Assembly: GCA_963706575.1 (NCBI GenBank)
Contig: CAVPNL010000008.1
Coordinates: forward strand, 1 to 64,000
From: an uncultured delta proteobacterium
Lineage (GTDB): Bacteria; Desulfobacterota; Desulfobacteria; Desulfobacterales; JAHEIW01
Direction: 5' to 3'
Length of the DNA stretch: 64,000 bases
Shown here: piece after piece, positions 12,937-47,200 of the stretch
Position numbering within the stretch: the first letter of the stretch is position 1
How the letters are laid out: each line of letters starts with the position of its first letter
Notes under the pieces: generated by a model
Told to the model about the DNA's origin: nothing
Database searches by the model: none
What the model saw: only the letters and a program-made list of their open reading frames with translations
Made by a program: the position numbers and the translations under genes

Positions 12937-12963
12937 TACCCATAAAAAGAATAGAGTTTATCC

Positions 12964-14045: not shown

Positions 14046-14070
14046 GGTTTTTGACCAGGGAGCAAGATAG

Positions 14071-14651: not shown

Positions 14652-14665
14652 AAAGGAGCTTTCCT

Positions 14666-21625: not shown

Positions 21626-24600
21626 ATGCGGATTATTGGAAATAACCAACTGATAATGAGACACATACTGAAACCTTTTCTGACCAATTTAGCCGGAAAA
21701 GGTTTTCTGCATATTTTTGTTCTGGCACTCGCGCTTTTTGTTGCCCTGCCAGCCGTATCTTTCGCAGACACATACGTTTTTGATACAGCCACCTCGACCA
21801 CCACCTGGGATGTTCCCGCCGATGTAACTGAAATTACGGTCAAAGTCTGGGGTGGTGCCGGTGGTGGTGGCGCCGGTGGAAGTTTAGGTGCGGGCGGTGT
21901 AGGTGCCGGCGGTGGCTTTGCTCAAGCCACGCTATCGGTGACACCGGGTGAAACCCTCAATATTTTTGTCGGTGGCGGTGGTGGTCCAGGCTCAAATGGC
22001 GCAACCGGCGGTGGCAGCGGCGGTGGTGGCGGCTATTCGGCCATCGAGAGGGACTCGGATTCGACTTATTTAATTGTAGCCGGCGGTGGTGGTGGCGGCG
22101 GTGGCGGCGACAACTCGTCTTCGGTGCCCGGCGGTTATGGCGGCTACGGCGGCGGCACAACCGGAGGCACTGGTGGCAGCTCAATCAATAATGTTGCGGC
22201 TCCTGACTCAACTGGCGGAACGGGCGGCACACAGGCCGCGGCAGGCACTGCCGGCGATAGCGGCAATAACCCGGGATCGCCCGGCAGCGGAATGAACGGT
22301 GGCGCTGGTGGAGACGGTAGTGCCACTGATAGCACCGACGGCAGCGAGGCCAATGGTGGCACCAATGGCGGTGGACACGGTGGTGTCGGGATCGCCGGTT
22401 ACGGCGGTGCCGGTGGCGGCGGTGGCGGCTATTTCGGTGGCGGTGGTGGTGGAGCAGCCACTGCCAGTGATGCCGGCGGCGGTGGTGGCGGTGGCGGCTC
22501 CTGCTACATTACCGGTTCGGGTACTACAATTGCACAGGCCAGCGGAACGCCCGCGGCCAACGAGGGAGACTCTGATTACAACGGCACAGCGGAGGGTGGG
22601 CGGCAGCGCAGGGGCTGTTAGCGCTGCCGGTTCTGCCGGCAGCGACGGTCTCATCGTCATCCACGCTGTTCGGCCGGGCCACATTACTGACCCTGAACCA
22701 CACCGACGGCGAAAAGGCGGTTAGGCAGGCCCAATCAGCGCAAGGTCGTGCGGGACGCAGACGGCTACTGGTACGTCGCCTATATGGACTGGGTCACCGG
22801 CGGCACAAACGATGACTATGAGGTCTTCCTGGTCAAGTCGAGTGATACCGAAGGCAACTCCTGGGAGACACCTGTGAAGCTGGCGGGCGAGTCCGGAATA
22901 CTCCTTGACAGCTCCTTGGGCTTTTACTGGCCGGCTATCGAAATAGACCGGACTTACGGCGCACTGCATATCATCTTCACCGTCGAAGGGACTTCAGGCT
23001 CCACTTCGCTTTATCATTCCAAGTGCAACAACCTGACGAACTGGAACCAGGCCACATCCTGGTCGCAGATCGACGGCGGCACCTCACCGCGGTATACCGC
23101 GATTGCAACGGATCTCCATTTCTTCAGCACCAACGCTTACCGCTCGAATTCAATCGCTGTGGACAGCAAAGGAGATGCCCACGTCGTCTATCTCCGGACG
23201 ACAACCGGCTACCCCTGGTACAGCTACGGCTCCACCAGCACAGGCTGGGACGCCGACGCTTCGCAGCCGGTGCAGCTGGATACCTTCTCGGTAACCAAGG
23301 CCTACCCGGCCATTGACGTCGACTCCAGTGACACTGTCCACATCGCCTATTCCCGAATGAATGGCGGCAATTATCAGTCCATACATCATTTCTACGCCAG
23401 CAGCCCATACACCAGCTTTAGCGGGCCTTATGCTCGAATAGGCTTGCTCTCTTCGAACAACCTGATCAACCCGTCCATTGCCGCTGACGACGAGGGCAAC
23501 ATCCACATCGTCTGCGAGCACCAGGAAAACAGCGAAATCTGGACAGCATATTACGACGGCGGCACCTGGACTGAAACGGAGGGTATGGACACGCTGGGCT
23601 GGAACACGCCCATGGTGGGGGTCAAGCTTGGCGGTGGCGCCGGCGTGACCGACGACATCATCATATCCCCCGACAACGGCACCGATCCGGACGATGTATA
23701 CTACTGGAAGTGGGACGGGTCCGCGTGGTGGCAGCCCGAATCAGACACCACCAAAGACAGCGATTCGTTCGTCTCGCTGGAGAAAAAAGCGCCCGCCGGC
23801 AAGACAGATATGGGCTACCTTACCTTCGACTCCGCCACGGGCGATTTGCTGTTCCACCGAATTACGGGGCTGGCCGCGGGCTCCACGCCGGCGACTCAGC
23901 CCGGTTTGGATCCCCTGATCGCCTACACCGAAAGTTCAGCAACCTGGGACGATTGGATCCGGTACATCACTTACGCTTCAGGCGACTGGCAGGCAGAGGC
24001 CGACATAGTGGACATCAACGATTCAACTTATATGAAATGGCACGTTGCCAAGACCAGCCCCGACGGCAGCGAACAGGCGGTGGTCTCGGTGATGAGCGCT
24101 CCCAAATATCTGTATGTGTCGCTCTATGACGGGACCAACTGGGATGACGGCAGCGGCAGTCCCTATAACGATGCCAAAAACCTGGGATACGTCCAGAATC
24201 CCGTACAGCGAAACTTTGCCGCCGCCTACGAGCAATCCAGCGGTCAACTGCTGATTGTTACCGGTACAGACACACTTAACCAGATCAAATACTGGGTTTG
24301 GGACGGCAGTTCCTGGATCGTGGACGGAGCGACAATTAGTTTGTCCACCATCAGTAACAAAATCGTCTGGATCGAGATGGCCTCCCAGCCCGGCACCAAC
24401 CAGATTGCCCTGACGGCCGTGGATATCAATAAAGACGTCATCGGCCTCATCTGGGACGGAGATACCAATTCCTGGGGCAACGAAAAAAAGCTAAACTCAT
24501 CGGTGCTCTATTCCTATACGGAAGAGCAGATTGCCGTCGCGTATATGCAGTCCGGCACCAATGCAGGCAAGGCCGTCTTCGTCCACTCCATCTCCGATGA

Positions 24601-27600
24601 TGTCTACAGCTGGACCTGGACCGGGTCGGCCTGGGAAGGATCCAGCAAATCCTGGCTGCACGGTAGCGGATCCCCTTACACCATTATTTGGATGAAGCTT
24701 GCAGCAGATCCGAACAGCGACGATCTTCTTCTGGCATTCTGCGATTATAACGAGGACATTTATACATTGCCTTGGGACGGAAGCGCCTGGACAAGTCATG
24801 ATACGGTGGAAACCGAAGCTCTGGGCGACGCTTATGCCCACCCGCCATTCAATGTTATCTTCGAAAGCAATTCCAATCACAGTGGGCATGCGCTGATTGT
24901 CTATGCCGATACCACCGGCCTCAGATACCAGCACTCGAGTGACGGTGGCGCCACCTGGGATGGTGAAAGCATAATAAATGACGATGACGAAGGTTACTGG
25001 ATTCAGCTGGCGCGCGAAAATAATGATGTGCTCCATATGGCCGTACACGATATTGACAACGACCTGGAAACCTTCACCTGGAACAACTCAACCTGGACCA
25101 AAAAGACCACCCGGGAAACGGATCTCAATTATGACGGGTCACATACCTATGAAGCATTTGCCATAACGGCTGCCGGGCCATTAACGGCGGAGATTACCCT
25201 GGGCGATCACGCTTCCGGTCAAATTGCCGATCAATTCATCGGAATTTCTCCCGTCTCCGACGTGCTTTTCAGGTTCAGCCTGACAGGGGATGACAGCACC
25301 CAGGTGGATGCGCTGAATGTAAATTACACCACCGCCATCGGCGTATGGGACGCCGATGTGACCGCGGCAGAGTTGTATGCCGATGATGGCACAACTCCCG
25401 GCGTCATCGACGGCAGCGATACTTTGATCGAAAGCGGCGTCAGCGGCTCGGGCGCACAGCTGAGTTTTACCACCAGTTTTACACCGGCCTCCGGCGGTAC
25501 CGGTTACCTGGTCAAGGCAACCGTGTCCAACCTGGTGGAGAACGACAGCACCACATTTTCCATCGGAACGGGCGACATCGCGCCAGGTTCCGGTAGCGCC
25601 GGCGGCAGCTCTCCGGCCAGCGCCACCCACACGGCAGATGCGCCACCGATCATTCTAAACGATCACACTTCCGGTCAGGTTTCCGACCAGTTCGGAGATA
25701 CAACCCCAGTTTCGGGCATTCTCTTCAGATTCAGTCTGACAGGGGACGACATCATCCAGGTGACGGCATTGGATGTGAACTACACCACGGATGACGGGGT
25801 TGTGGATGGGGATGTAACAGCGGGAATGCTGTACGCTGACGACGGCACAACCCCCGGCGTCATCGATGGCAGCGACACCTTGATCGAAAGCGGTGCAAGC
25901 GGCTCGGGCGGGCAGCTAAGCTTTAGCACTAGTTTTACACCGGCCTCCGGCGGCACCGATTACCTGGTCAAGGCGACGGTATCCAACCTGGCGGCGGATG
26001 AAAGTACGACATTTTCCATGGGTGCCGCCGACCTGACAGTTTCGGCCGGGACGGCAGCGGGAACCGCCACTGACGCCATCCACATAGTGGGAATTACGAC
26101 TGAATTCACCATCCAAATCGGAGGCAGCGCCGACGATTCCTATGCGGCTGATAATTTGGACAATGCCTCCACATATATTGCCTCTGCCATTGTGGATATC
26201 ACGGCGCATATGAACGGCCTGAGTTCGAAATATAACGGCGGTTTCAGATTTACCGGTCTCAACATTCCGCAGGGCGCCACCATCAACAGTGCCACATTCT
26301 CAGGCTACGTCTATGACGTTGGGAGCGATAACTTATATTGCACGATTTATGGGCATGATGTGGGGAATGCGCCGGATTTTTCAACCAACCAGTATATCAA
26401 AACCACCGGCCAGCGCCCGCGCACCACTGCCAGTGTAACCTGGCAGTCAGACTTCGGCTCCACCGGCTGGAAGGACAAAGATGTCACCGGGATTGTGCAG
26501 GAGATCATCGGACGGGGCGACTGGAGCAGCGGCAACGCCATCGCATTGCTGTTCATATCCGATGACAGGGTGGATCCCCAACCCAATAGATTCCGTTCCT
26601 ATGACGGGGTGCCTGCTGAGGCTGCCAAACTTAACCATCGATTTCACCCTCCCCAAAATGCTTTACCGCTCTGTGGGCACCACGGCCACCGCCCTGGAAA
26701 GCGGCACAAGCAATGCGCTCACCATTACCGGTTCCACGGCGACTTTCGGCAGCGGAATTTCAAACAGCGTCGGAGTGGGAGATGCCATTGAATACGACTC
26801 GGATGGCGACAGCAGTATCGATGCGCTGGCATTTATTCACGGCCGAAGCGACTCTCAGACCTATACGGTTAAAGATAAAGAAGGCAACACCCCAACCGCA
26901 GTGACCGGAGACAATGATTGGGCCATCTACCGCGCCTATACATCGCTGAATAAGTGGCAATTGCAGGATGAAAACGACACTATTGATGACGCAGTTGAAA
27001 ACTTCGATATTTCGAGGGACCTGGTTGGTAACGGCACCATCATGTACGTCGCGTGCTATGCGGATGCAGATGATACCAATAAAGTTCCGATACAGGGATG
27101 GAATACGGGATCATCAAATTATATTAAGATATATACACCGTATTTAACATCTGAAGTCGGAGCAACACAAAGACATTTAGGAACGTGGGCGTCGGGTGGA
27201 TATAAGATAGTTGATTCTGCAACATATAGCCAGGGTGTGATTTATATCAATAACGATTATGTTAGAATAGAAGGATTGAGAGTTGAGAATACGGCAGACA
27301 AAAGTAATCAAACAAAAGGAATCGTTAATAGAAATAGCGGAGGTGGAGAAACTCACATAAGTCATAATATTGTGCGATCTACAGGATCGGGTTCTGGAAA
27401 TTACTCGGCTGCTGGAATTTACAATACTAACGATAGCACCGGGACCTTGAAGGTGTGGAACAACATCGTGTACGATTTTGGAGGTGGTATCGTTATCGAA
27501 TGGCTCGCTGGCACTAACAACTTTGCTATTTATAATAATACGATCATTAATAGTGATGCAGTTGGGATTGAATTCGATGACCATTCTTCTGGATATTTTA

Positions 27601-30600
27601 GAATTGCCAATAATTTGGTTCAGGACTCGTCTGGATACAACTATTATTTTGCCGGAGGTGCCGGCAGTATAGACTATTCCGCAACGAATCTATCCCAGGA
27701 TGATACGTCTCCTGACGGAGCATCATTTCAGAATAAGACAGTCACCTTCGCGGGGGCAGCGGATTTTCATCTTGATTCCAGCGACACCAACGCCAAGGAT
27801 CAAGGGACCGATTTGTCCTCTGATCCCAATCTTTCTTTTTCCGATGACATCGATGGTGACGACCGGGAGGCGGCCGACTGGGACATCGGGGCTGATGAGT
27901 ATGTAGCTGCCTCGAACTCAGCGCCTACGGCTCCGACCACACCTTACAGTAACGACACGACCGCTCAGAGTGGTCAAACCAACCCGACCGGTATCACCGA
28001 TACCACACCGGCGTTTAGCGCGATTTACAATGATCCGGATAGCGGAGATGTCGCCAACAAGTACCGCGTGGAAGTCAACACCGCCAGTGATTTTGGCGGT
28101 ACGGTCATGTGGGATTCAGGCGCCGGCGGCACAAGCATGACTGACACCACCGCGGGCAACCGCTGCCCGGACATTATCTATGCAGGCTCGGCTCTATCGA
28201 ATAGCACCACCTACTACTGGCGCATTACCTTCTGGGACGATGACGACACCGAAGGGACGGTGAGCGCCACCCAGAATTTTACCACCGGCACAATCACTTC
28301 CTGTTCCAGTGTTGTGTTAAATGCCTTATATGAAGGTACAACCCAGATTGCAGCGAGCGATTATATCGCAACGGTTGATATCACCGATGTGGATATGTCC
28401 AAATCCTTTCTGGTGTTCAGCGCCGCTGTCGATGACAATAGACCCCAGTGCACTCAGATTCGGGGTAATCTATACGACGCCGGTTCCGGTGACATCAAAA
28501 TGGATTTCGAACGCTATGAATCTACCTGCCCGGTAGCCGATATCCGCTATTACGTGGCGGAATTTTCCAGCGGGGTCAGCGTGCAGCGCGGCACCAAGAC
28601 CACGTTGAGTGCAGACACCATAAATGTCCCCCTGAGCCCCACGGTGGATACCGGCAAAAGCTTTCCGTTGATCAGCGGCTTTGTGAGCAGCACCATACAC
28701 AACGGCAATGACTTTATCGAAGCGGAAATTACCGCCAACAATAATCTACAGTTGAGGAAAAATACCGGTGACGGAACAGCTAAGGTGGATTGGCAGGTCA
28801 TCGAGTATGGGTGCAGTGCGGTTCAAAAAAATACCATCTCAGGCTGGACAACCGGTTCGAAAACTGACGTCCTCAGCCCCACGGTGGACCTGTCCAAATC
28901 ATGGCTGATTTACAGCTATAAGACCGATAGTGGCGGTGATGCCACCATGGCGGAAAACATGGTACGCGGGCGCATCACCGCCGTCAACGAGCTAACCTTT
29001 GACCGAGATGATACCGGTTCTACCATCGATCTGACCTGGTATCTGGTTGAGTTTACCGATGACACCACGATTAAATACGGCACAGAAGATTTTGCAGCCG
29101 GTGACAGTCAGGAAAATGTCACCCTGTCACCATCGGTTAGCCTGGCGAGCACCCTGGCGCTTGGCGGTATGTATATGCGGGGCGGAAAGAGCGCTCATGA
29201 CAGCGATGACAACCCCGGCTACGGTTGGTTTACCTTTGATTTGACGGCCGACGACAATCTGCAGATTACCCGTAACGCAAGCGCCGGTGCGGCGGCTGAT
29301 GTGGGCTGGTTTGTAATCGATTTTAATCCCCCCACAACCCTCTACCGCTCGGTGGGCACCGCAGCTGCCGACCTTAATACCGGCTCGCGGACGGTTGAGA
29401 TCTCCGGTTCCACAGCGACTTTTTCCGGTTCCATGCCGGACAATATAGGAGTGGGTGATGTGCTGGTGTACGACAATGGCAGTGCCCAGCTGGCATTTAT
29501 CCACGGCCGCAGTTCAGCCACTGTTTTTACCGTAAAAGACAAAGACGGCGGCGCCCCGGCGGCAGCGCCAGCGGGAACAGCGGTCGGTGTTTATCGCGCC
29601 TACACCTCGTTGAGCAACTGGCAATCGCAGACCGAAAATACAAATATTACCGAACCCGCCGAAGATGATGTCAACCCTTCAACGGATCTGGTTACGGCAA
29701 ATACCATAATGATGGTGGCCTGTTATACCGGCGCATCCATCGATAATGATTATGTTATTATAGACAATTGGACGACGGGTCCCGCAAACTACATTAAAAT
29801 CTTTACCCCGGTTTCTTCATCCGAGGTCGGCACCAGCCAGCGGCACGATGGAACCGCGGGAACTGGATACAGTCTGATTACCTCGGGGTTAGAGGTCGGT
29901 ATCTCTATTCGAGTAGAATATGTAAGAGTCGAAGGATTGGAAATCTCATCCTATTACCCTCCAATTGACTTACGAGAGATGTCCGGCCCCAGCGAAATCA
30001 GAGCTTCCCATTGTTTGCTCCATGGGCTTGATAGCGGTTACGACGAATGGGCCAATGCGATCTACGTGAATGACACTGATGTAGTTCTCTATGCATGGAA
30101 TAACATAGGTTATAATCTTGGATATGGTATTTCCACAGATGCGTCCAATGAAATCTATGCCTACAACAACACGTTCATAGACCTCTTGCATTATGCAGTC
30201 GCCATAGGCAGTGGCACCTGCTATGCAAAAAACAACATTGCTGCCAATAGCGTCGAAGGGAATTATTTTGCTTGGAACAGCGGCTCATTTCATAGCAGCT
30301 CTGACTACAACTGGTCTGATGACACAACCGATACCGGCGGCACCAACGACATCAACTCGAGCGATCCGGGTTGGAATGATGTGACGTTTGCCAACGAATC
30401 CACCGATAATTTCCATCTTGCTTCCACTGATAGCGGCGCCAAAAACCTCGGCACCGACCTTTCCGGTGATGCCAGTCTGGCTTTTGCAGACGATATCGAC
30501 GGCGGCACCCGCTCAGGTATCTGGGACATCGGGGCCGATGAGTATGGTGCCAGTCCAGTAACCACACTTTATCGTTCGGTGGGCATCACTGCCACTAATC

Positions 30601-33600
30601 TTAATACCAGCCCACATACGGTAGAAATCTCCGGTTCCACTGCGACTTTTTCCGGCGACATGCCGACCCTTGTCGGGGTGGGTGATGTGCTGGCCTACAA
30701 CAATGGCAGCAACCGGATCGCATTTATCTATGGTCGCACCTCCGCTACAGTCTTTACGGTCAAAGACAAAGACGGCGGTACCCCGGCAGCCGCCTCAGCG
30801 GGAACAGCGGTCGGTGTTTATCGCGCCTATACCTCGCTGGGCAACTGGGAATCGCAAACTGAAAATGCCAACATCACTGAGCCCGCCGAAGATGACGTCA
30901 ACCCCTCAACAGATCTGTCTGCTGCGAATACCATCCTAATGGTGGCCTGTTATGCCGATGGAGCCGAAACGACAGGCAGTGAGGTTAACATTTCCGGCTG
31001 GACCACCGGAGCCGGCAATTACATCCGGATCTTTACCCCGACTGGAACAGATGAAGTCGGAGCCAGCCAGCGCCATAGCGGCAGCGCCGGCACAGGTTTT
31101 GTCATGAAGCCCAACACCTCGTCTCCCGGTGAATATTTCTCTGTTATCGAAATCCAGGAGGACTATGTTCGCATCGAGGGCATCGAAATCGACGGCACGA
31201 CGATCACCAACGGGCAATCTGTCAGCGGCATTCAGACGAACAATATCTCAGCTGCCAGCGACATCCGGATCGATAAGTGCCTCATTCACGATATTACCTC
31301 GACAACGGGCGCCAATTATCCTTTTGCGGTAGGAATAAAGGTCGATGATGGGTCCACCCGCATAACCAATAATATTATTTACGATATGCGCAATACCAGC
31401 GCAGATGCCGATGCTTTTGCCAAGGGCATGCGGCTCGACGGCGGTGCCGCTGAGAGCCAGAATGTTTACAATAACACCATCTACAATGTCAACAGCTCCG
31501 GCAGCGCCGGAACCATCGCCGGTATTCATGCCATTTCCGGTACAATAACGGCGACCAACAATTATGTCGGCGGTACCAGCGGCGGTGCCTCGGCCGTTGA
31601 TTTTACCGGCACCCTGACACAGAGTAACAACATTTCCTCTGACGCCACTGCCAGCGGCACGGGCTCTTTGACCAACCGCAGCGCCACCGACAATCCCAAT
31701 CCGGGTGCCGGCGACTGGGTGGTATTTGCCAATCTGACCGCCGGCAGTGAAAATTTTCACCTGCAGGATGCGGCCGAAAACGATGCGCTCAATACTGGCG
31801 CTAATCTTTCCGGCACCTTTAGCGATGACATCGACGGGGATGTCCGCCCGAGCGGCGCCAATACCTGGGACATCGGGGCCGATGAAAGCGATGGGAGCTG
31901 CAATGATTCATTTGGCTACGCCAAGTCGATTACCATCGACCGCACCAAGATCACCAACCCTGCAGGCACGCTGCCGATTGCCTTCGATGCGGTCTCGAGC
32001 TCCCAGACCGCAGATGCGGGGGCCGGAAGTCTTTCCTGGTCGCACACGGTGGGCGCCGGCAGCGAGCGTCTGCTGGTGGTGGGGGTGTCGATCCGCAACA
32101 ACACCGGCCAGACGGTCTCAAGTGTGACTTACAACAGTATCGGCCTGACATATTTAAACTCTCAGAGCAACGGCACCAATGCCCGGGTGGAGATGTGGTA
32201 TCTAAAGGAGTCCAATTTTCCGGGAACCCCGGGCGCCTACACTGTGGAAGTAACGTTGTCGGCCAGCGCCCGGTGTCGTGGCAGCGGCCACCTCCTTTTT
32301 CAACGTGGATCAGACCACCCCCTTTGGCACCTTTGCCTCCAATACCGGGACCAGCAATCCTTTTCCAAATCCAGGCGTGACGGTCACCAATGCATCCGGG
32401 AGGTAGTTGTGGCGGTTTTTGCCAAAACCCATTCTTACGGTGCGACCAAAGGCGTTTCGAACCATCAGGTCGAGCGCTGGAACCAGGCTACCGCTGACGC
32501 CACCGCGGCCAACAACATCATGGGTGCAGGGGCACTGGCGACCGGATCCGGGCCGAGCGTTGGCGTCTCCTGGCAGTTGGACGATTCTACCACCCAGTAC
32601 TGGGCAATCGGTGGTGTGGCAATCAAGCCCACCTCGAATGCACCGCCGCAGATCACCACCTTAACTGATTTTCCGCTGCTTTACAGCGTGACCGATACGG
32701 ATTTGAGAGACAATGTCACCAGCGCCAACGGCTGGGACATTATCTTTCGCGCTTTAGATGACACAACCTGCGGCGGCGCCGGTTTGGCTCCGTGCACCCT
32801 GGATCATGAAATCGAAAAATACGATTCAGGCACCGGACAAGCTGGTGGCCTGGGTCAGACTGCCTTCGGTCAACGGGGCGGCAGCCGGTTCAGATACGGT
32901 CATCTATATCTATTATGGCAACAGCTGCATCACCGCTTCGCCGGAAAACAAAAACGGCGTGTGGGACTCTGATTTTATGGAAGTGTGGCACCTGGGCGAA
33001 AGTTCGGGTGCACCGGGTGACTCAACGTCAAACAATTACACGGGCACGATCGAAACGCCGGGCAACGTCACCCAGGATGCCACGGGCAAAAACACGCCCG
33101 CCTATCATTTTGCCGGCGGCTCAGGCACACCCTCATGGCTGACGCTTGACCGACGGAACCATGACCGCCAATGCCCCTTACGCTATCGAGGGCTGGTTTT
33201 ACATCGACACCACCGTGCCCACCTGGTGGGTGGGGTTTGTGACCAAGGACCGCGACACCGCCAATCCGGAGGCCACCGCCAACTGGGGAGGGCTTTGGAC
33301 CGACAGCACTGAAGCTGATTTCTTTTGGCAGCATCTACAACAAGGGCAACAATCTTGACGGCTCAACGCTTGTCGGCCGGCCAGTGGTATCATGGCGTGG
33401 CGGTCTTTGACGGCGGGCTTGCGAACCCTTTATTTGAACGGGCAACGGGATCCGGCTGCGCTGGTATCTTCTCCGACGGTCTATCTTGCCGACATGACCA
33501 TGCCTCTGCGGGTCAACCAGGACGATAGCGACGACGACAGCATGACCGGCGTGTATGATGAGGTGCGCGTCTCCACCACAGCGCGCTCACCGGGCTGGAT

Positions 33601-36600
33601 TTTAAGTACCTACAACAACATGAACGACCCGGGCGACATTGGCAGCCCCGGATTTTATATCTGTGGGTTCAGAGGAGGCCGATCCGCCCACGGCAATATC
33701 GTTGATCTCCTTTACCGCCAAAGGCGCAGGCGCAGCGGTGCAGGTCAACTGGCAAACGGCCCAGGAAGTGTCCAACGTGGGCTTTAACCTGTACCGGGCA
33801 GACAGCGCCGCCGGCCGTTTGTACAAGATCAACGCCAGCCTGATCCCGGCGCTGAGCTTTTCAGCTACGGGCCGAAGCTACGGCTTTGTCGACAGCAACG
33901 TGGTGTTAGGCAACCTTTATTATTACAAGCTTGAAGACATCGATGTGTACGGCAAGCGCACCTTGCACGGGCCCATCTGCGTGGACTGGGACGGCGACGG
34001 TCTGCCCGATGACTGGGAGATCAGATACGGGCTTAACCCGTGGGCAAACGATGCCAATCTCGATTCTGACGGTGATGGGCTGACCAACCTGCAAGAATAT
34101 GAGCTGGGCACAGACCCGTTTAACCCCGATACCGACGGCGATGGGATCTTAGATGGTGATGAAAGCCGCAAAGTGAGAACGCCAAGACAGCGATGGCACC
34201 CGCCAGCTTAGCCGCGGGGTGGAGGTTGTGGCCGAAGATGAATATGGCATTACCCTTGAGCTTTACACCGACACCTTTTTTACCGAAAGCGTTTATGCGG
34301 ACGGCATGGAATATGAGCGGCTTACGATCGACGATTACGTGCACGGTTACACCAGCGAGGTGGGCAAACCCGAGCTGCCGTTAAAAGGCATCCTGGTTAA
34401 TATCCCCGAAGGCCAGATCGGTGCGCTTTCCATTTTACGACCACAGTTGAGACCTATAGCGGTTATCAGATCTTTCCGGTACCGGCAAACAGCGTCGATG
34501 ATCAGGAGGGCGGCCGCGGCTGTGGCAGAAAGCTTTGTCATCGATGAAGCCGCCTATCAGCAAGATGCCTTTTACCCGCAAGCAGTCGCGCAATTAGGGG
34601 ATCTGTTTGCCTTCCGCGATCAAAACAAACAGCAGCTGCTGTTTTACCCGTTTGCCTTTAACCCGGTCACCGGCGAGCTTAACCATTACAAACGCATTCA
34701 GGTACGAATTGACTATGTCGATGATCTGTATGCCAGAGTTGAAGATCACAGCTGTTAGCCCCTGGACGGTGCCGCTGCCCGCACCATCTTCAGGCGACTT
34801 ATCCGAGCAGCTGGCATCGATGGGCACTATGGCCATGGCCTTTGGGGCATCGCCTTTGATCGTAAACCCGCTGTCGCCGGCGCTCACATCTTTGGGTGTG
34901 ATCATGGGCGCGGTGTGGTCACCGCCGGCTGATGGAGCTGCCAGCGCCTATAAGATTATGGTCGCTGAAGATGGCCTCTATCGGCTTGACAGTGCCTTTT
35001 TTACCAACAACGGCATTGATCCCGCCGACATCGATTTAGATACCGTGCGCATCTATCATATGGGTGAAGAAGTCGCTGTTTTGGTCAACGATGCCGACAG
35101 CCCCGGTGCCTTTGATGCCAATGATTATATCGAGTTTTACGGGCAACCGGTAGCGGATCAATATAACAAATACGCGGCCCAAAACATCTACTGGCTGGTG
35201 ACCGGTGGCGGCATTGGATCCCCCAAACGCATGGTTGCAGTCGACGGTACCCCGGCTGCCGGGCCTGTGGCTACCGAGCACAGCGCTTCTGTGCGCTTAG
35301 AAGACGATGAATACTATGTGGGGCTTGGCCCCGGGCACAAACGAGCGCGACCGCTGGTTTTTTGATGACTTTGTGCTGGGCACCGACTTTACCGGCGGGC
35401 CGACTCCGGTGCAGGTGCCCTTTGACCTCACCTTGCCGGGCGTTATCGGCTCCGGGTAATCTTACCATCTCATTGTGGGGCTATTATGACACCGGCCATG
35501 AGGTGGAAGTGTGGGTAAATGATGTGTCTCAGGGCACCTTTTAGCTGGAGCGGCGTTGCCTTTTATGAGGTGAACTTAAGCGGGCTTAATTTAACCGAAA
35601 ACACCACCGTCAAACTTGCCTGTAACACCGCCATGGACGGGTTGATCGTCGACTATATTGAGGCTACTTATCCGCAAAGCTTTGCCGCGGTCACTGACAC
35701 ACTCAACATTTAGCCACGACAGCGGCTACCGCTATATCATCGATGATTTTAGCACCGATGCGCTGCGTGTTTTTGACATCACCGACCCGGTTGATGTGGC
35801 TCAAGTGACCAACCTGCAAATTAGCGGCGCAGGTACTTTTAGCCTTGAGTTTGAACCCCCGCCCAGCGGGCTGACTGACCGCTTTGTTGTCATCGGCTCC
35901 AATGATTATAAGATCCCCGACGCCATTATCGAAGATGTACCCTCTGATCTGGCAGACACCGCCAACAGCGCCGATTACATCTTGATTACCCATCCGGATA
36001 TCGGCTGGGACGGCGGCGGTGCACAACAGGGCTGGTTAACCGATCTGGTTGCCCTGCGTGAAGATGGTGATCTTGAAGTCAAGGTGGTCGAATGTCACCG
36101 ACATCTATGATGAGTTTAGCTACGGCATCACCCACCCCGGTGGCGATCCGTGACTTTTCTGTCCTATGCCTATGAGCAACTGGCGCACGCCGGCACCCCA
36201 GTATGTGCTGTTGGTGGGTGACAGCACCTATGATTTTAAGGACAACTACAACCGGGGCACCGTAAACCATGTGCCCGCATATACGGTGTTTACCGATTAT
36301 ATGGGTGAGACCGTCACAGACGAATACTTTGTCACCATCAGCGGCGATGATGCGCTGGTCGATATGTACATCGGGCGGCTTCCGGCCCAAAGCGCAGCTG
36401 AAGCCGCAGCGATGGCTAAATAAGATCATTGCCTATGAAACCGGGCTAAACAACGGCAGCTGGGAGAAAAACATGGTGCTGGTCGCCGATGATCAGACCG
36501 AGGCCTATGAGGCGGTCTTTGAGACCATCAACGAGGATGCCGCCGCGCTGCTGCCGGCTAAGATGGTGGCCTTAAAGGGCTATTTAAACGATTATCTGCT

Positions 36601-37556
36601 CTCTGGTGATTTAAGCACCGACATCACCAACTGGATCAATGACGGGGCGTTAATTGTCAATTACAGCGGCCATGCCTCATTGCAGCAGTGGGCGGCAGAG
36701 GCGGTTTTTGTCAATGCCGATGCGGGCACTTTAACCAACAGCGGCAAATATCCGTTTGTGATCTCCATGAGCTGTTTGACCGGCTACTTCGGGTACCTGG
36801 ATGCCGTCGACGGCCCGGAGCCCTCGCTGGCCGAAGCGCTGCTTGCAGCCTGCCGACAAAGGGGCCGTCGCAGCGCTGATGCCAACGGGCATGACCACCA
36901 CCGCCGGTCAGCACATATTCAACAACGCGGTCTTTGAGGCTTTTTTTGTAAACGATATCAGACAAGTTGGGACCTGCGATCGCTTCAGCCAAACAAACCC
37001 TTTTAGCCAACGGCGATGCCTATTTTGAGCAGATCAGCGCAGACCTTTTTGCTCTTTGGCGATCCGGCGCAAACCTTAAAGATCCCGCTGCCGCAGAATG
37101 CCCAGCGGGGTAAAGGCCTATTGGGAAAACAACTCCGTGCGCATTCACTGGAATGCGGCCTTGGACAGCAACGGCAACGCGGTGGCCGGCTACAATATCT
37201 ATCGCGCAAGCTCCCCGGCAGGCCCCTACAGCAGGGTCAACACCGGGCTTGTCACCGGCACCGAGTTTGTCGACGCTGACGGGGCGGTGGGCATTGATGA
37301 GGGCGAAGGAAGCGGAAGTAGCTACTACGGGGTCACAGCGGTTGACAGCTTCGGTGATGAAAGTGCCCAGTCTTTAGGCATCAGCCCGGCTTCGGTTGCT
37401 TCAGCGGCACAGGCGCCGGTGGCAGCTTGTTTTGTCGGGTCTGTCAGTCAGTCTATGCCCAAACAGGGGATCTGGTTTGTCGTGCTGCTGGCCATAGCGG
37501 TGGTTATTGCCATCAGGCGCACGGTGCACGGCAAAAGAAGAAGGACTGAGGGCTGA
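21626..37556 (+). CDS. Giant secreted modular surface protein A (~5,300 aa, reconstructed across frameshifts) with C-terminal C25 peptidase
   Basis: Signal peptide (..PAVSFA|D); Gly-rich domain; BNR/propeller-like region; Ig-like repeats; three LYRSVG/beta-helix modules ending WDIGADE; DUF2341+LamG-like; TSP3-like repeats; C25 cassette; TM tail. Consecutive fragments abut or overlap with no intergenic gaps. Confidence 0.8.
33680..37556 (+). other. C-terminal cassette of gene [12 protein letters not shown] domain, TSP3-like repeats, C25 propeptide, C25 (gingipain/PorU-like) peptidase, Fn3, Cys+TM tail
   Basis: [58 protein letters not shown] (His codon 36671); SMSC (Cys codon 36773); LLFGDP; AACFV + TM + RR. 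Confidence 0.88.
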
Positions 37557-38222: not shown

Positions 38223-41200
38223 TTGATTTTAAACAATAAAATATGTCGGAGAGGGAATACGCGCCATTGTACCACCAGCGTGGGGTGGATCACCGCATCA
38301 CTGATTGCGGTGATGGTCGTTTTCGCCTCGAGCCCTGCTAACGCCGCGATCGGAGCTTCACTCGTAACCTCTATCGCTGACGGTACAGATACTTCCTCCT
38401 ATGACTTTCCTTCGGCCACTTACTCCAACAACGTTCTTTACATCGCCTTTACTTCCACTGCCTGCGGCAGCGGACAGAATTGCGGTCTTGGTGTAGACAT
38501 CGTCGCTGCAGTAGAGAGTGTCAGCGGGGCGGGATTGAATTTCACTGAGATCGGGACACCTGGCGGGGAGGTTTTCAGCACAAACGGTCGGCGCATCCAG
38601 GCCTGGCGGGCATTGGTCGCCAGCGGGGCCGGCACAGGGGCTGTCACGGTTACCATGCAAACCGGAACTATCTCTGCTTCAATGGGTGCGGCGATGATTG
38701 AGTTCACGGGCACTAAGACCAGCGGCACGAACGGCGCTGACGCTGTTGTGCAATGGCCCACGAACAGCGCCAGTGGAGTTAGCTCGCTTACCGTCAATAT
38801 GGCGGCTTTCGCCGATTCTAACAACAGGCCGGTCGCCTTCTTTTCGCACAGAGCCCAATCAGGCAGCGAGGCAACGACCCACGACACTGCGGAAGGATAC
38901 ACGGAACTGTATGACGGGCCTCATGACAGTGTTATGATGGCTGACATGGCCGAGTGGCATGCCACAGCGGCAAACACCACTCCCTCAGCTTCATGGACTA
39001 GCTCGGGTTCCACTGGCGGGTTTGCCCTGGAAATAGCAGAAGCAGGCGCTCCGGCGGCTGCCACCCTCACCCAGGCCCATGTTCGCTGGCGCAATGACGA
39101 TGGCGGGGAGTCGGGTGGTGGCTCGTGCGTTGCCGGGCCGACGGAGTATTCAACAGCTCAAGATTCAACGACGTACGTCGTTCCTACAGGGTGTGATGTG
39201 ATTACGGTAAAAGCCTGGGGTGCCGGCGGTGGCGGCGGAGAGTCGACCGGCAGCAATACCGGCGGATCCGGCGGTGGCAGCGGGTTTGCACAGACTGACC
39301 TATCGGTGACCCCCGGTGAAAATCTCACGGTCATTGTCGGCGGCGGCGGGCCCGGTGGAAGCAATGCCGGTGGTGACGGCGGTGGCGGCAACGGTGTTAC
39401 TGCTGCCGGTGGCGGTACCGGTGGCGATGCGGGAGATCCCGGTAGCGGCGATTCCGGCGGTGGTGGTGGCGGCGGAGGTTATGCAGCGGTCCTGCGCAGC
39501 GGCACCTATCTCGTGCAAGCCGGCGGCGGCGGCGGCGGCGGCGGCACCGGAAATAGCGCTGGGGATGGCGGCGCCGGGGGCGCTGGTGGTGGATCAAGCG
39601 GTCTTTCTGGCAGCACTGGTGGGGGCTCAGGTGGAGTCGGGGGTGGCGCGGGAACGGCCTCGGCCGGTGGCGCTGGCGGTGCCTTAAGCGGCTCCGCCGG
39701 CTCGGCAAACACCGGAGGCACAGGCGGCACCAATTCGGGTGACGATCCCGGCGGCGGCGGCGGTGGCGGCGCTGGACGTTACGGCGGCGGCGGCGGTGGC
39801 GCGGCTTCCCCTGAAACCGCCGGCGGCGGTGGCGGCGGTGGATCAGGTCTTGTCACCGGAACTAATACGTCACTGCAGCAAGGATCGGGTTCGACCGCGG
39901 CCAATACCGGCGATACAGACTACGCGGGCAATGCCGGGCAGGGGGGGGCTGCCGGAACAGATGGCAATCCCGGTCGAATTGTTATCATACCCAGCAGTTC
40001 CGGTGGTGGTGGCAGTATCAGTGAAACAGGAAGTGCAACAAATATAGGATCTAGTAGCGCTGCTTCAATTACACACGGCCTGACCATAAATGCCGATGAT
40101 GTGATCGTTGCCATGATTCATGTAAATACAGATAGCACTGATGTTTCTGACAACAATGGTGCTTACGCGTTTACAGAGCAAATCGACGAACCAAATGGAG
40201 GGACTTCAAGTCATTATGCAATTTATTCCAGGGTAGCCGGCGCTTCAGAACCCGCCAGCTATTCATGGAACCTTGGTGGTTCTTGGGCTTGGTCTATACA
40301 AATCCGTGTATTCTCCGGGGTAGATACTGCTACTGTCTGGGACGTAGCACCTTCCACGTCTACCAGATCTTTTGCAGGTTCAGGCACCACTGCAACCGCC
40401 CCAACCATGACCACGTCAACTGACGGTGCAATGGGAATCATTGCCTTCTTCTCCGATAGTTTGGAAACTTTTAGCAATCCCACCAATGGCTATGCAACGG
40501 AGGTTGAACCTGCCAGCAGCAGGGCTCAGGCGAGTTATATTCGCACATGGGCATCTGCGGGGGTAACAGGAACATCGAGTGCCACCCTCTCTGCTTCAAA
40601 TGACTGGCTGGCACATCAATTTGCATTAAAACCCGCGTCGGGCAGTGGTGCCACCTGGGCAGCCGACGAAGACACCAAGCTGACGGGCCTGGCTAAAAGC
40701 ACCACCAGGCGGCTGCGCTTCCTGGTGGACAATTCCGGCACCGCAAGCTCCGGGGCCGTTTCTTATGAATTGCAGGTACAGGAGACAGACACCTGTGGCT
40801 CGGGATCCTATACGGCGGTGGACTCCTCGACTCACTGGAACATCGTGGATTCCACCTACGTGACCGACGGCGCTGCTTCGGAAAATGTCAGCGGCGGTCT
40901 GACGGATCCGGGCGGCTCGTCCTGGGTAGCCGGTGAACTGGAAGACAGCGCAGATTCTCCCGACCCGATCACTCTAGCTGCCAGCGAATTCACTGAAATC
41001 GAGTTTGCCGTGCAGGCAACTGCCAGCGCCACAGACGGCGGGGACTATTGCTTTAAGCTGACCGACAGCGGGACCGATCTGGACAGTTATTCAAATTATG
41101 CCGAGGTTGCCCTTTCAGGGGGCAGCGGAGCAACGCTCAACCAGGCCCACGTCCGTTGGCGCAACGACGATGGTGCGGAGAGCGGTGGTTCGACCACTGC

Positions 41201-44200
41201 CGTTTCGGATTCGTTTACCGAGTCAGCCAACACGGTTCTTACATCCCATTCCCCGGATACAGGAACCGGCTGGACGGAGGTTTATGACAGTTCCCCGAGT
41301 GGTGATGATGCCACAGTAGTGGCCACGGAAGACATCGTAAGAGCAGGTTCGAGTGTAAACGACGTTGGGCAGGCTTATACGGCCCAACCTGCGCCGGCGG
41401 GTGTCGATCAGGATATCAGCATTGCTATAGATACTTTAATATCCGATACCGGAACCAAGCCTTTTGGACTCTTTGGAAGGCGCACGGATAACAGCAATTT
41501 CTACCACGTTCAGATTCTTCCAAATGAGCACAGTGAAGCCAGCGTTAAGCTCTGGAAGTTTGTAAGCAGCGTGGATACCGAACTGGGGTCCTATGATGCT
41601 ACGCTGGCAGTTGGTGATATCATTAAGCTCGAAATCAGGGACGCCACCAAAAAAGTTTATATTAATGGTGTCGAGCGAATTAGTTCCTCGGACAATTCCC
41701 TTACCAATGCGGGCACCTGGGGTCTCTATTTTGGAAATTATAATGGTGCCGGAGCAGGAGGCCACCTGCGGGTTGACTGGCGACTGGATAACTTTCTGGC
41801 CGAAGACCCTGGAGGAGGCTCAGGCGCTACCTTTAGCATAGACGAAGATACGGCGCTGACGGGTCTGGATAAAAACACCAACACCCGGGTCCGTTTCCTG
41901 GTGTCGAATAGCGGCGGTACGACCGCCAGCAACACCAGCTACCAGCTCGAGTTTGCCGAAGCAGCCACCTGCAGCTCCGGCTCCTACAGCGCGGTGCCTG
42001 CCACCGCCGGCGCAGGTGATAAATGGCAGATTGTGGATTCAACTCATTATACCGACCCAACGGCCACGGCAGATATTACCGACGGGGTCGACGACGCGCT
42101 GCCCAACCCGGGCGGTATGAGCTTTGTGGCCGGTGAGCTGAGGGATGACAACAGCAACAGCACCGGGGGAATTACCCTGGATCCGAACGAGTTTAGCGAA
42201 ATCGAGTTTACCATTCAGGCGACCAATGACGCCCTGGACGGCACCCATTATTGCTTTAAACTGACCGAAAGCGGAACGGATCTGGATAGTTATTCATATT
42301 ATGCAGAGGTTACCCTTTCAGGGACTCCTCCCAATTCAGCTCCAACCTTAACCGTCGATGAACCCGACGGGGCTGGCGATACGGTAACCGTCGGTGACAA
42401 CTACAACATCCAGTATGACCTGGCCGATACCGATGATGTTGTCACCGTTGCATTTTTACTATGATACCGACAACAGCGGACTCGACGGCACCGCCATAAC
42501 CGGCGCCTGTGCAGGCTGCAGCCGAAGGCACCGATGTCACCTGCAGCTGGGATACCACCGGCGTGACGCCCGGCAACTATTACGTTTACGGCATCACCGA
42601 TGACGGAACCAATCCCGCAGGTGAGTGCTTACTCGTCGGGACAAATTACCATTAATGCTGCTTCGGCCGCCACCCTCGATCAGCTCCACTACCGCTGGCG
42701 CAATGATGATGCGGGGGAGTCTGTTATCCCCCTGGATACGGGATCCGGAGCCGATGGCTCTGTGACGATTTCAGCATCTGAAAATATCAATACGGCTGTC
42801 CTGGGTTCCAGTCGTTCGACTTATGCGGACGGAATCCTAACCACGGTTACGGCAAATCCGACCGCAACCTCCATTAGCGTTACCGATACGACCGGTTTTG
42901 CGGCCGGCGATGAGATTTTATTGATCAACCTCCAGGGTGCCTCGGGCGATGTGGCAGATGTCGGTAACTATGAATTCCTTACCGTCGATACCGTCCCCAA
43001 CGGCACGACGATCAATGTAACATCGACGATTACCAAATCATACGACGGAACGACTTTTGCCAACCAAAGCATTATTGTCCAAAGGGTACCTCAATGGACG
43101 TCGGTGACCATCAATTCCGGCGGGACATTAACAGCCAATGCCTGGGATGGGACCAGCGGCGGGGTCATTGTCTTCAGGGCCACGGGGTCCGTTACTGTCA
43201 ACACGGGCGGGAAGATTGACGCCACCGGCATAGGCTACAGGGGTGGTGCCGGCGGTACGAGTGACGGCGGAAACAACGGCGAGTCTTACGACGGTCAGAA
43301 TGGGAAAGGCGGTGCCGATGACTCACGGGGCACGCTGGGCGGAGGCTCAGGTGAGAACTACCCAACCCAAGATAACACTACCGGCACCCGCGGCGGTGGT
43401 GGCGGTGGTGGTGAAACCGGTAGTATAGGCCAGGGTGGCGCAGGCGGAGGTGGTGGCGGCTACGGCGGCGGCGGCGGCGGTGGCGGCGGAGGTACAGATA
43501 CAGACAACTATATTTCAGGCGGCGGTGGAGCCGGCGGAACCACCGGCGATAGCGCAGGCGGCGGCGGCCACGGTGAAAACAGTGGCACCTCCGGCGATGG
43601 AGGATCTGCCGGTAACCCGGGCAACGATGGAGGCGTAAGCGTGGCCGTGGGCGGCGGTTTGGCCGGTAGCGGTACAACCACCGGCCAGGGCGGTCATTCT
43701 GAGGACGCCTCAGATTCCCCGGGCGGTGGCGGCGGTGGCGGTGGGAGCTACGGTATTGCGAACCTAACTCAGATTTTTTGTGGCTCAGGCGGTGGCGGTG
43801 GCGGCGATTCCGGTGCGGTTACGGGAGACGGGGAAACCGGAGGCGCCGGCGGGGGCATCATTTTCATCATTGCCGACACGGTTGATAATAACGCGACTAT
43901 CCAATTGCAGGGCGCGGACGGGGTAGACGCTACGGACGGGGACGGCGCGAGCGGTGGCGGTGCCGGCGGCAGTCTCTTGATCCAGGCGAACACGGTTGAC
44001 AATACTGGCGGCACGATTACCGCTGCCGGAGGCACTGGTGGAGCTGTGGATACGAATGATGACGCCGGCGGTGGCGGCGGCGGCGGCGTCGGTCGCATCC
44101 GTATCGAAGCCGATACGATCATTGGCACCAGCACCCCGGCTGCATCAACGAGCGGCACTCCTACTTCGGGAAGTAGCGCAAGCTGGGCAGCCGACGAAGA

Positions 44201-47200
44201 CACCAAACTGAACGGCCTGGCCAAAAGCGCCAACAAGCGGTTGCGTTTTCTGGTTGATAATACCGGTACCGGGAGTTCCGATGCGGTATCCTATGAGCTT
44301 CAGGTAGCCGAAAGTGCAACATGTGGCTCAGGATCTTATTCAGCGGTGGATTCTTCCACTCACTGGAACATTGTGGACTCCACTTATGTTACCGACGGTA
44401 GTGCCTCTGAAAATGTCAGTGGCGGACTGACGGATCCAGGAGGGTCCTCCTGGATGGACGGTGAGTTAGAGGACAGCGCTGATTCTACCGATGCGATCAC
44501 TCTCGGTGCTAGCGAATTCACCGAAATAGAGTTTGCCGTGCAAGCCACGGCCAGCGCGACCGATGGCGGGGATTATTGTTTTAAATTGGTTAATGCTGCC
44601 GGCGGTGCCCTGGACTCTTATACGGCGTATGCTCAGGTACGCATCGCGGGCGCGCATCTTACCCAGGACCATTACCGCTGGAGAAATGACAATGGTGGAG
44701 AGACCGCATCATCAACCGTGACCTACCAGAAAGGCGACGGTAAAGGCAGTGTTTCTGAGACGGATGATGCGACGTTGCATTCGACTAATTCTACTACAAA
44801 TTATGGCTCTGACGCTGCCCTCCTGATAGATGACACTCCTGATTTACACGCAGTTATCAAATTTCCCAATATTTTTGGTGGGGGCGCGAACCAGATTCCC
44901 CTGGGTTCAACGATCACCAGTGCCACATTGACCGTTGAAGTATTTGACCCGGGTACAGAAATAGCCGTTTACCAGGTTACTGAGAGTTGGATTGAAGATC
45001 AGGTGAGTTGGACCAACCGAGTTACCGGTACCCCCTGGTCCAATGCAGGTGCTGATGGAACCCTCTCCCATAAAGCAACAGCGGACGACACTTTTACAAA
45101 CGGCAGTAATGGTTCCAGGGATATCGATGTCATCACCAGTGTTCAGAACTGGTCCGCCGGAGAAGCGAATGAAGGATGGGTTTTTATCAACACGACTACC
45201 GGTGGTGTGGATGTAAGATCCAGCGAATATGGGACATTAGCCCAGCGTCCAAAGCTCTCAGTAACCTATGGTAGTGGTTCCGGTGCCACCTTTGCCGCCG
45301 ATGAAGACACCGCAATTACCGGTCTTGCTAAAAACACCAATAAACGGGTTCGCTTTCTGGTGTCCAATAGCGGCGATACGACCGCCAGCAACACCAGCTA
45401 CCAGCTCGAGTTTGCCGAAACCGACACTTGCAGCTCCGGCTCTTACAGCGCGGTGCCTGCCTCCGCCGGCGCCGGCGATAAATGGGAGATCGTGGATTCA
45501 ACTTATATCAGCGACGGAGAAACGACTTCAGATATCGATGACGGAGTCGACGATGCGCTGCCCAATCCGGGCGGCATGAGCTTTGTGGCCGGCGAGCTGC
45601 GCGATGACAACAGCAACAGCACCGGCGGAATTACCCTGGATCAGGATGAGTTTAGCGAAATCGAGTTTACCATCCAGGCGACCGATGACGCCCTTGACGG
45701 CACCCATTATTGCTTCAGGCTGACCGACAGCGGAACCGATCTGAACAGTTATTCATATTATGCCGAGGTTACCCTTGCGGGGGCTTCCAATTCAGCTCCG
45801 ACTGCCCCGACAACCCCTTACAGCAACGACACCAGCGCCCAGAGCGGACAGACCAATCCCAGCGGCATCACCGATCCCACCCCGGCCTTCAGCGCGATTT
45901 ACAATGACCCCGATTCAGCGGGGATATCGCCAACAAATACCGGGTGGAGGTCAACACCGCCAGCGATTTTAACGGCACGGTGATGTGGGATTCCGGCGCC
46001 TCGGGTACGAGCATGCCAGACACCACCGCAGGCAACCGCTGCCCGGACATCATCTATGCGGGCTCGGCGCTGGCCGACAGCACCACCTATTACTGGCGCA
46101 TTACCTTCTGGGACGATGGCGGCAGCCGAAGGCACGGTAAGCGCCACCCAGAATTTTACCACCGGGACGATCGCCACCACGACCCTGAGCTGGGGGGAAA
46201 ACAGCAGCCGGGACGACTTTAACGCTGTAACCGAGGATACGTATTTAGATCAGGATCAGCCCAGTTACGACATGGGCACCAACCCGCTTATTCGTGTTGG
46301 AGACGACGGCAGTCGCATCAACAGAACCCTGATAAAATATGATCTTACTGCCCTTGACGGCCTCGTCACAAGCTCCAGTCAAATCGTTTCCGCCACCCTC
46401 AAGATGAAAACCTATAATGACGACGCTGACCCTGGAAACATCGATGTTGATGCATTCAGAGTTAAAAAAGATTGGTTTGAAGGAACCAAAAGTTATGATC
46501 CGGCAGATGATGTGGATGATGCTGCCACCTGGCAATATCAGGTTTTTAACGAGACCTCGTGGACCGGCGCCGGCTGTGATGATTCAGCCGATAGAGAAAC
46601 GACTTCAGACGATGTTGAAACATTTGCTGCAGATTATACGTGGTACTCCTGGGATGTAACCGATTCGGTCAAATATTTCTTCGATACCCCATCCAGTAAT
46701 TTTGGATGGCTTTTAAAAGCGCAGAGTGAGGGGATAACCAAATATTGGCGAATATACAGCAGTGAAGCGGCTGAGGCAAACCGGCCCTATCTGGAAATCA
46801 CGATTAACGATGATCCGGCTTGCGGCTATGCTTACAAGCGGGCCATTACCATCGATCACAACGATGTCATCGGCGACAGCGGAGATACCGTGGATCTGGT
46901 TGATTTTCCGGTTGTGATAAAAGAATCCGGCACCTGGCTCAGAAACAGCGGCTACACCGACGGGCGCATCGAAAATGTTAACGGCTATGACATCATCTTC
47001 AAAGATTCCACCGAAACGCTGACCCTGGCGCACGAAATCGAGTATTATAACGAAGGTTCCGAGGCCGCCAACGGGGAAGCTGATGGCCTGGGTAAAAATT
47101 CCCACCCTCGATGCGGATGCCAATACCGTCATTTACATGTATTACGGCAACAGCTGTATTACGGCTGAGACTCAAAATAAAAACGCGGTTTGGAACGCCA

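Follow-up and report, generated by a model that had tools for sequence, protein, structure and literature searches.

A PorU-like C25 protease at the end of giant exported proteins in an uncultured delta proteobacterium: a candidate sortase outside type IX secretion

PorU is an enzyme of gut and mouth Bacteroidota that clips and fastens surface proteins; it cleaves its cargo and transpeptidates it onto anionic lipopolysaccharide (A-LPS). To our knowledge it is the sole demonstrated sortase of its kind, and it is tied to type IX secretion. The stretch of DNA analysed here, a 64,000-nt window at the start of contig C8 (CAVPNL010000008.1) in the genome of an uncultured delta proteobacterium (5.67 Mb, 91.8% complete), encodes giant proteins that end in a protease module resembling PorU. 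The question raised by this locus is what such a protease does at the end of a giant protein. Our preferred answer, to which we give a probability of roughly 0.55, is a sortase system independent of type IX secretion and fused here to its cargo: the protein would be exported, anchored by its tail and activated by loss of a propeptide, and would then cut its passenger at a Thr/Ala bond and either release it or link it to an amine.

The C25 module compared with PorU and the gingipains

Five paralogs of the giant protein are present in the genome, four of them consecutive on contig C8 and the fifth on contig C6. A first-pass annotation of the window had recognised two copies; both are intact in their catalytic residues, but they are part of this larger family. 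Named relatives closest to the protease belong to the Desulfobacterales. The passengers vary among the paralogs (Gly-rich, beta-helix, LamG, CBM96, DNRLRE and immunoglobulin-like (Ig) domains), and the end module is common to all: a small domain called PTA, TSP3 repeats, Propeptide_C25, PorU-type N-terminal domains, Peptidase_C25, a fibronectin III domain and a Cys-transmembrane tail. The module had been drawn as ending at 37100; the C25 domain does lie within that limit, yet the protein continues to 37556, through the fibronectin III domain and a Cys-Phe-Val motif to a membrane helix and a basic tail.

Judged by its sequence, the enzyme is a predicted PorU-like C25 cysteine protease with an intact His-Cys pair. 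The catalytic pair, intact in both copies of the window as the first-pass annotation had it (codon positions in Table 1), aligns with that of gingipain R. The stretch YKIMV...NIYWL, likened there to PorU-type proteins, matches the beginning of the PorU model NF033707, and the gingipain-like propeptide noted there precedes the protease. An intact relative, P0007, matches NF033707 over positions 5–739 of 1095 at 305 bits; the cut-off of 420 bits is unmet by P0007 and is exceeded in 0 of 201 genomes of the phylum. The best PDB sequence match of P0007 is PorU (6za2, E 3e-17), followed by RgpB (E 1e-10). An AlphaFold2 model of the C6 module, with a mean confidence (pLDDT) of 69 that is low near the active site and a predicted template modelling score (pTM) of 0.51, retrieved PorU 6za2 first in Foldseek (E 3e-29), and VIA-align placed residues 24–791 of 6za2 onto residues 403–1137 of the model (Z 23.0, root-mean-square deviation (rmsd) 6.5, 577 aligned). 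Membership of PorU itself was rejected on the score, the absence of a type IX tail, the end of the match at model position 739 and the lack of a PorV match in the genome. The enzyme thus has a PorU-like build without being PorU itself.

Latency of the protease is probably maintained by the propeptide, and the C6 paralog model matches the Kgp prodomain 5mun with a Z of 11.2. Approximately 340 residues of PorU-type domains plus linker separate the propeptide from the catalytic domain, whereas in gingipains the catalytic domain follows directly. Between the propeptide and the PorU-type domains, at 34820–34920 of the window, a conserved hydrophobic helix lies in a poorly predicted linker; it is found in part of the family only and may be a membrane contact or maturation site.

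A quick tree was built from 75 catalytic domains, with two Bacteroidota PorU rows, the gingipains themselves absent and C25 pieces of <250 or >480 residues left out. The fused clade of the window (100% support) has as its sister a group of stand-alone enzymes (93%; the two together 89%) that share its propeptide and N-terminal domains, and the two PorU rows fall outside both clades, within a weakly supported group (83%). Gingipain-like C25 proteins of the same order, the best PDB match of which is RgpB, sit apart. In this tree the window's clade is not among the gingipain-like proteins, and its nearest neighbours are the stand-alone PorU-like enzymes. Fused forms occur in four places in the tree.

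A search for PorV family genes gave 0 matches in the genome, with a positive control. SprA likewise gave 0 matches in the genome, as did the type IX tail TIGR04183 in 5 genomes, but the control searches for these two were silent too. The giant protein has no type IX C-terminal domain of its own; its last features are the fibronectin III domain, the Cys motif and the membrane helix. The genome does encode a type II secretin (539 bits).

The PTA domain, its candidate cut site and its distribution

A Thr-Ala-Ile site before the PTA domain marks the precise end of the variable passenger. At this site, 29 relatives have Thr in 29/29 and Ala in 27/29, and a wider set of fused domains has Thr in 53/55, Ala in 49/55 and Val or Ile in 55/55. 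The predicted site fits the published pattern for PorU, which a passage of PMC4560394 gives as X/(GSA)(VLI); a passage of PMC11969387 has PorU cutting at PT/GI within a flexible linker. The Thr occurs in 53 of 57 PTA domains linked to a protease module vs 17 of 44 tandem PTA-like domains without the module (p 3e-9, for sequences that are not independent), which argues that it is dispensable for the PTA fold.

The AlphaFold2 model of the PTA domain (pLDDT 93; first strand from residue 4) has a fibronectin III fold, with 3mpc as the best match (Z 11.3, rmsd 2.1, 87 aligned). The top 50 fold matches are all of fibronectin III type and include no type IX tail structure, a result with which kinship to those tails is still compatible. 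TIGR04183 and Por_Secre_tail do not match window positions 33624–34211. The PTA domain also scored 0.85 against an Atlas cluster that bears the name of the type IX tail, which is a lead only.

In this genome each of the five PTA domains is joined to a protease, and no free PTA-ended cargo was found. In other genomes, which have one to three stand-alone proteases, PTA is the last domain in up to ~30 unrelated exported proteins. Matches to PTA and to C25 genes number 32 and 1 in G001, 21 and 3 in G003, 3 and 1 in G004, and 7 and 7 in G005, all of these counts being lower bounds. Anchored PTA domains from eight genomes are the last domain in 91 of 99 cases, in a sample that covers part of each genome's matches and from which 7 more domains that could not be anchored are missing. 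The cargo includes Lcl, hydrolase, FG-GAP and S8 proteins, and a signal-peptide-like start was seen in 25 of 30 by a crude test. Across 200 genomes of the phylum, 11 carry a PTA domain at E 1e-12, and 12 have a PorU-like gene spanning the N-terminal and catalytic parts (E <1e-50, a threshold chosen after the list was seen), with five more showing only a weak catalytic-domain match. The full PorU-like gene is present in 9 of the 11 PTA genomes vs 3 of the 189 others, and in two of these three enzyme-only genomes a divergent PTA gene lies directly upstream of the enzyme.

Known sorting systems likewise pair one enzyme with many cargo proteins; in the window, the two are fused. Because it begins exactly at the passenger boundary, is the last domain of many proteins and co-occurs with the enzyme, the PTA domain is probably more than a spacer. 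The first-pass proposal of a sortase without type IX secretion, putatively cis-acting, is partly favoured by comparison, in that the enzyme is PorU-like over the first 740 model positions, no type IX genes were found in the searches above, the boundary is Thr-Ala-Ile and PTA behaves like a C-terminal sorting domain where the enzyme stands alone.

Two related arrangements were observed. Right behind a full protease gene, L056:659-1996 encodes a passenger, PTA, TSP3 and a Cys-transmembrane tail with no protease, and its product is a possible trans substrate within the fused clade. In Chloroflexota (L081, L082, L097, L098 and L100), PTA cargo and C25 enzyme share a C-terminal hydrophobic Phe/Tyr-Leu-Pro-x-Ile/Val motif, which suggests a further sorting signal in that phylum.

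Proposed mechanism, accompanying genes and rival explanations

In the proposed mechanism the giant protein would be exported by Sec, and its protease half would be anchored via the tail Cys after cleavage by a neighbouring CPBP protease, by analogy with MYXO-CTERM proteins; passage through type II secretion would follow. The propeptide would be removed or displaced, the PTA domain would be recognised by the protease and a thioester would form on the passenger's Thr. Hydrolysis would then release the passenger, or transpeptidation would join it to an amine acceptor as by PorU. The cut could be made in cis or between paralogs, and candidate acceptors are the modified peptide of the flanking gene set, a surface glycan, or water.

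A Cys-Phe/Tyr-Ile/Val/Leu motif is found in the tails of 111 of 120 relatives, 77 of which have a following membrane helix and 32 of which end right after the motif. A gene for a CPBP membrane protease lies behind the array; its best model is MrtJ at 39 bits (cut-off 75), and such a gene is beside 34 of 79 precursor loci. The invariant Cys, membrane helix, basic cluster and nearby CPBP protease are the traits given for MYXO/JDVT-type tails in passages of bioRxiv 10.1101/2023.06.07.544157 and PMC11980579; according to the same passages, MYXO-CTERM tails of like build are Cys-dependent, cleaved by CPBP proteases and use type II secretion. By this analogy the protease half would be anchored through its own tail. 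The self-anchoring proposed in the first-pass annotation is to be corrected in this respect. The candidate CFI-box-CTERM (NF041770, cut-off 40 bits) was rejected for the tails of the window, which gave no match; the full CFI-box domain is found only in stand-alone relatives such as L107 (97 bits).

Additionally, a HEAT-repeat membrane protein and its partner (G000:C8:103182-104679, minus strand) always adjoin the CPBP protease. The HEAT protein bears the middle of the CFI-box-CTERM profile (positions 18–49), which is missing from the short tails of the giants, as though the domain had been split. The same Cys-Phe-Ile and helix tail, with neither C25 nor PTA, ends four frames at G000:C18:175169-178840, 185405-187090, 188044-189267 and 191982-192194, whose products are probably additional substrates of the CPBP protease.

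It is a peptide-modification set, and not glycan genes, that accompanies the protease from locus to locus; glycan genes flank this one locus. Relatives of the set lie beside 12–17 of 78 related loci, many of which have short flanks, and, in eight genomes, near stand-alone enzymes, so that the gene set is common to the stand-alone and the fused form. Relatives of the glycan genes are rare beside the related loci (WbqC 2/78, deacetylase 1/78, WecA 0/78, within the limit set by short flanks). After copy 4 and outside the window, the set continues with a PF14907 nucleotidyltransferase, the CPBP protease and the HEAT protein. Its 54-residue precursor peptide has a Tyr-x-x-Pro-x-Leu leader (Tyr-x-Lys-Pro) and a core with three conserved Cys; it is matched by no NCBIfam model and has 237 relatives in metagenome contigs. 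Among metagenome loci, C25 precedes the precursor in 15 of the 23 that extend at least 1.8 kb upstream, and C25 or its tail does so in 33 of the 46 that extend at least 0.9 kb. In stand-alone operons a different small precursor was found in 4 of 8 loci checked. This second precursor family lies upstream of the radical SAM gene (L095:12174 and L104:13945, minus strand; L112:3423 and L117:4819, plus strand), with a leader ending in Gly-Pro-Ala-x-Ala/Thr and a short core with two Cys.

One doubtful elaboration, held tentatively, is that a PorU-like transpeptidase cuts cargo before PTA and links it to the co-encoded, ribosomally made, exported and modified Cys-rich peptide, a peptide of natural-product type that would serve surface proteins as anchor or cross-linker, acting here on its own cargo of 5,000–7,000 residues. 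Taken jointly with this, it is equally doubtful that such a peptide-anchor sorting system spans Desulfobacterota, Chloroflexota and other phyla. In all 24 precursors of the fused clade that were identified without use of a pattern, Gly or Ala follows the conserved leader; the 80/80 obtained in the metagenome precursor scan was imposed by the search pattern and is not evidence. A passage of PMC4560394 states that PorU prefers acceptors beginning with a small residue, and a Gly/Ala start, if the leader is cut just before it, would fit this preference. Against such a role, the precursor of the stand-alone operons is a different one.

Several findings weigh against the preferred reading, a sortase independent of type IX secretion. 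The catalytic domain alone fits RgpB better (Z 33.7, rmsd 2.8, 320 aligned) than PorU (Z 23.0, rmsd 6.5). The propeptide is characteristic of gingipains, and in the tree these enzymes group with PorU at only 83% support, with two PorU rows and long branches. The fibronectin III fold is common, with 10,205 library representatives matching the PTA domain at E 1e-10, and fibronectin III domains often start with Pro/Thr/Ala-rich linkers. Stand-alone cargo has mostly Leu after the Thr (66/99), not the small residue of PorU, and the related genomes behind the co-occurrence counts are not independent. Three genomes have PTA domains with no C25 gene and no cassette kinase found: G195 (93% complete; at least 24 domains), G002 (fragmented; 15 domains) and G104 (one weak domain). 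The Thr is kept in 15 of 23 domains of G195 vs 60 of 65 in protease-bearing genomes (p 0.004, not independent), which fits decay after loss of the enzyme; however, G002 keeps it in 9 of 10. A rival is a degradative protease displayed on the surface together with adhesive domains in one chain, comparable to an RgpA/Kgp polyprotein with its order reversed and with PTA as spacer only. The propeptide, the RgpB-like shape and the adhesin-like passenger domains would agree, and papers on extracellular peptidases discuss C25 genes in sediment microbes. Such a protease nevertheless seems unlikely: the 340-residue PorU-type region stands between propeptide and catalytic domain, the gingipain-like C25 proteins of the same order are elsewhere in the tree and the two genomes tested had no PTA domain, and neither the ratio of one enzyme to tens of PTA-ended proteins nor the keeping of the Thr only beside the protease would be explained. 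It is also unlikely that the protease serves the peptide pathway, trimming or linking the exported Cys-rich peptide, with PTA an uncleaved docking or export domain that shares the locus. The precursor gene directly behind the protease gene at the metagenome loci counted above, the protease gene inside the peptide-set operon of G001, and the joint absence of protease and kinase from genomes that keep PTA domains all speak for this role, whereas the set already has its own S24/S26 peptidase, several protease loci, including those of Chloroflexota and family f47, have PTA cargo with no set nearby, and the Thr is less well retained in G195, which lacks the protease.

The giant genes could also be decaying pseudogenes whose module is not made. 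Against the intact relative P0007, the module of copy 1 is 87% identical with 17 frameshifts (16 insertions, 1 deletion) and no in-frame stop. The four C8 copies are 84–88% identical to P0007, each with 5 to 17 frameshifts, and ordinary genes of the same assembly, with 14 frame changes in 51.6 kb of matches, have fewer per base. Pseudogenes are nevertheless highly improbable: over ~5,070 codons the four copies are free of in-frame stops and differ by 47 one-base insertions and 2 deletions, the ratio of nonsynonymous to synonymous substitution rates (dN/dS) between copies is 0.14–0.19, and at six of the break sites, among the matches listed, contigs of relatives have one base fewer. Moreover, the C6 paralog is unbroken through the module, and intact fused relatives are up to 4,500 and 6,467 residues long. 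The breaks are read, from these alignments, as long-read errors left in a repeated region. An alternative genetic code was rejected, the breaks being frame changes and not stops. Reads of the strain were sought, but no run shared >20% of words, and the frameshifts were compared with relatives only. Since the module is broken in the assembly, the fused architecture of the window rests on relatives with one reading frame.

The preferred sortase reading can be set beside known systems. As in PorU, a His-Cys C25 domain follows N-terminal domains of the PorU kind, a linker before a small beta-sandwich domain holds a candidate cut site with the PorU pattern and, in relatives of the window protein, one enzyme accompanies many cargo proteins with a shared last domain. 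Unlike PorU, the window enzyme is without the last 350 model positions, carries a gingipain propeptide, TSP3 repeats and a Cys-transmembrane tail, is fused behind its cargo, has a fibronectin III-like cargo domain and travels with peptide-modification genes, in a genome with none of the type IX components searched for as described above. RgpA and Kgp are protease-adhesin polyproteins processed after export. With these and RgpB (1cvr, 4ief, 4rbm, 5mun) the window protein shares propeptide and catalytic fold, but its passenger is before and not after the protease, PorU-type domains are inserted, the candidate site is Thr/Ala and not Arg or Lys, and there is no type IX tail. The tails resemble those of MYXO-CTERM, JDVT-CTERM and CFI-box-CTERM proteins in build, and the CPBP gene next to the array and the type II secretin recall the myxosortase systems; however, the window's tails match none of the models, the CPBP protease is below the MrtJ cut-off and part of the relatives end without a helix. 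The leader motif, PqqD-like protein, HPr-kinase-like kinase, nucleotidyltransferase and exporter of the set are like those of lasso-peptide tailoring and radical SAM/SPASM cassettes, although the three-Cys precursor is without a family model and the set is tied to a C25 gene. No lasso cyclase or B2 protease was among the scanned neighbours; no genome-wide search was made.

What is new in the proposed system is that PorU-like chemistry would be combined with a different sorting domain, a different anchor and a different route of export, and no description of such a system was found in open-licence PubMed Central and bioRxiv texts (supplements and subscription papers were outside the search). 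If the reading is true, clip-and-fasten surface sorting would be older and wider than type IX secretion, including Chloroflexota; the display of 500–700 kDa proteins by sulfate reducers would be explained; and many C25 genes of sediment genomes that are tallied as food-digesting peptidases would be sorting enzymes. The fused form places enzyme and predicted site in one expressible piece of 1,200 residues, so that cleavage and transpeptidation are directly testable, and the module may yield a new protein-ligation tool.

Layout of the locus

Coordinates of the giant genes, their domains and the accompanying set are collected in Table 1. Copy 1 begins with a signal peptide, followed by a Gly-rich, beta-helix-like, Ig and LamG passenger and then the conserved module. 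Upstream of the module, intact relatives bridge 7 of 8 tested breaks of copy 1, with 22600–22750 unbridged, and copy 1 would be one continuous gene over its whole length. In the passenger of copy 2, relatives do not bridge 42440–42620 and 45890–46000; four other breaks are bridged.

Table 1. Positions of the giant genes, module domains and accompanying genes (window numbering unless marked C8)
Feature	Position	Strand	Remarks
ABC (ATP-binding cassette) exporter of the set	7565..9400	+	weakest link of set; 6 or 7 of 78 related loci have a close relative of it alongside
Radical SAM/SPASM enzyme of the set	9569..10741	+	relatives in 13/78 related loci, many with short flanks
S24/S26 signal-peptidase-like protein of the set	11334..11936	+	
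Copy 1, giant exported protein	21626..37556	+	~5,300 residues if read through frameshifts; from open reading frame pieces
PTA domain, fibronectin III-type, putative sorting domain	33687..33989	+	predicted cut Thr(33690)/Ala just before first strand
Bacterial TSP3 calcium-binding repeats	33990..34175	+	PF18884, 45 bits, cut-off 25
Gingipain-type propeptide	34207..34740	+	PF08126 (Propeptide_C25), 59 bits, above Pfam cut-off
PorU-type N-terminal domains incl. CBM35/36-like beta-sandwich	34949..35969	+	NF033707 positions 6–152, 292–376
Peptidase C25 catalytic domain	35970..37093	+	PF01364, 93 bits, above Pfam cut-off; His 36671, Cys 36773
Second fibronectin III domain	37094..37380	+	P0007 residues 1252–1338 match Fn3-like 3mpc; aligned to window
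Membrane-anchor tail	37416..37556	+	small residues, Cys-Phe-Val (Cys at 37428), membrane helix, basic cluster
Copy 2, giant protein	38223..59497	+	~7,000 residues if continuous; module 55634–59497
Copy 2 key residues	Thr 55637, His 58621, Cys 58723, tail Cys 59375	+	
Copy 3, start	60893..64000	+	module at C8 72295–76139
Copy 4, after copy 3	module C8 93581–97421		
PqqD-like gene, after copy 4	C8 97740–98033		
Cys-rich precursor peptide, 54 residues	C8 98070–98234 (L002:19071-19232)		previously unannotated
HPr-kinase-like gene	C8 98653–99501		

Between the radical SAM and S26 genes, at 11040–11321, lies a small gene that we take to belong to a four-helix-bundle-like family. The array is preceded, at 113–7365 of the window, by a low-GC glycosyltransferase cluster and followed, at G000:C8:105103-118000, by WbqC, deacetylase, aminotransferase, WecA, ExeA-like ATPase, Wza, Wzc and ligase genes. 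A minor pilin cluster with a PilC/PilY1-like adhesin (12453–20386) is located directly upstream of the giant genes. In the fifth paralog (G000:C6:185945-193294, minus strand) the frame continues beyond the membrane tail into a response-regulator domain, and the same is seen in P0031 and P0038.

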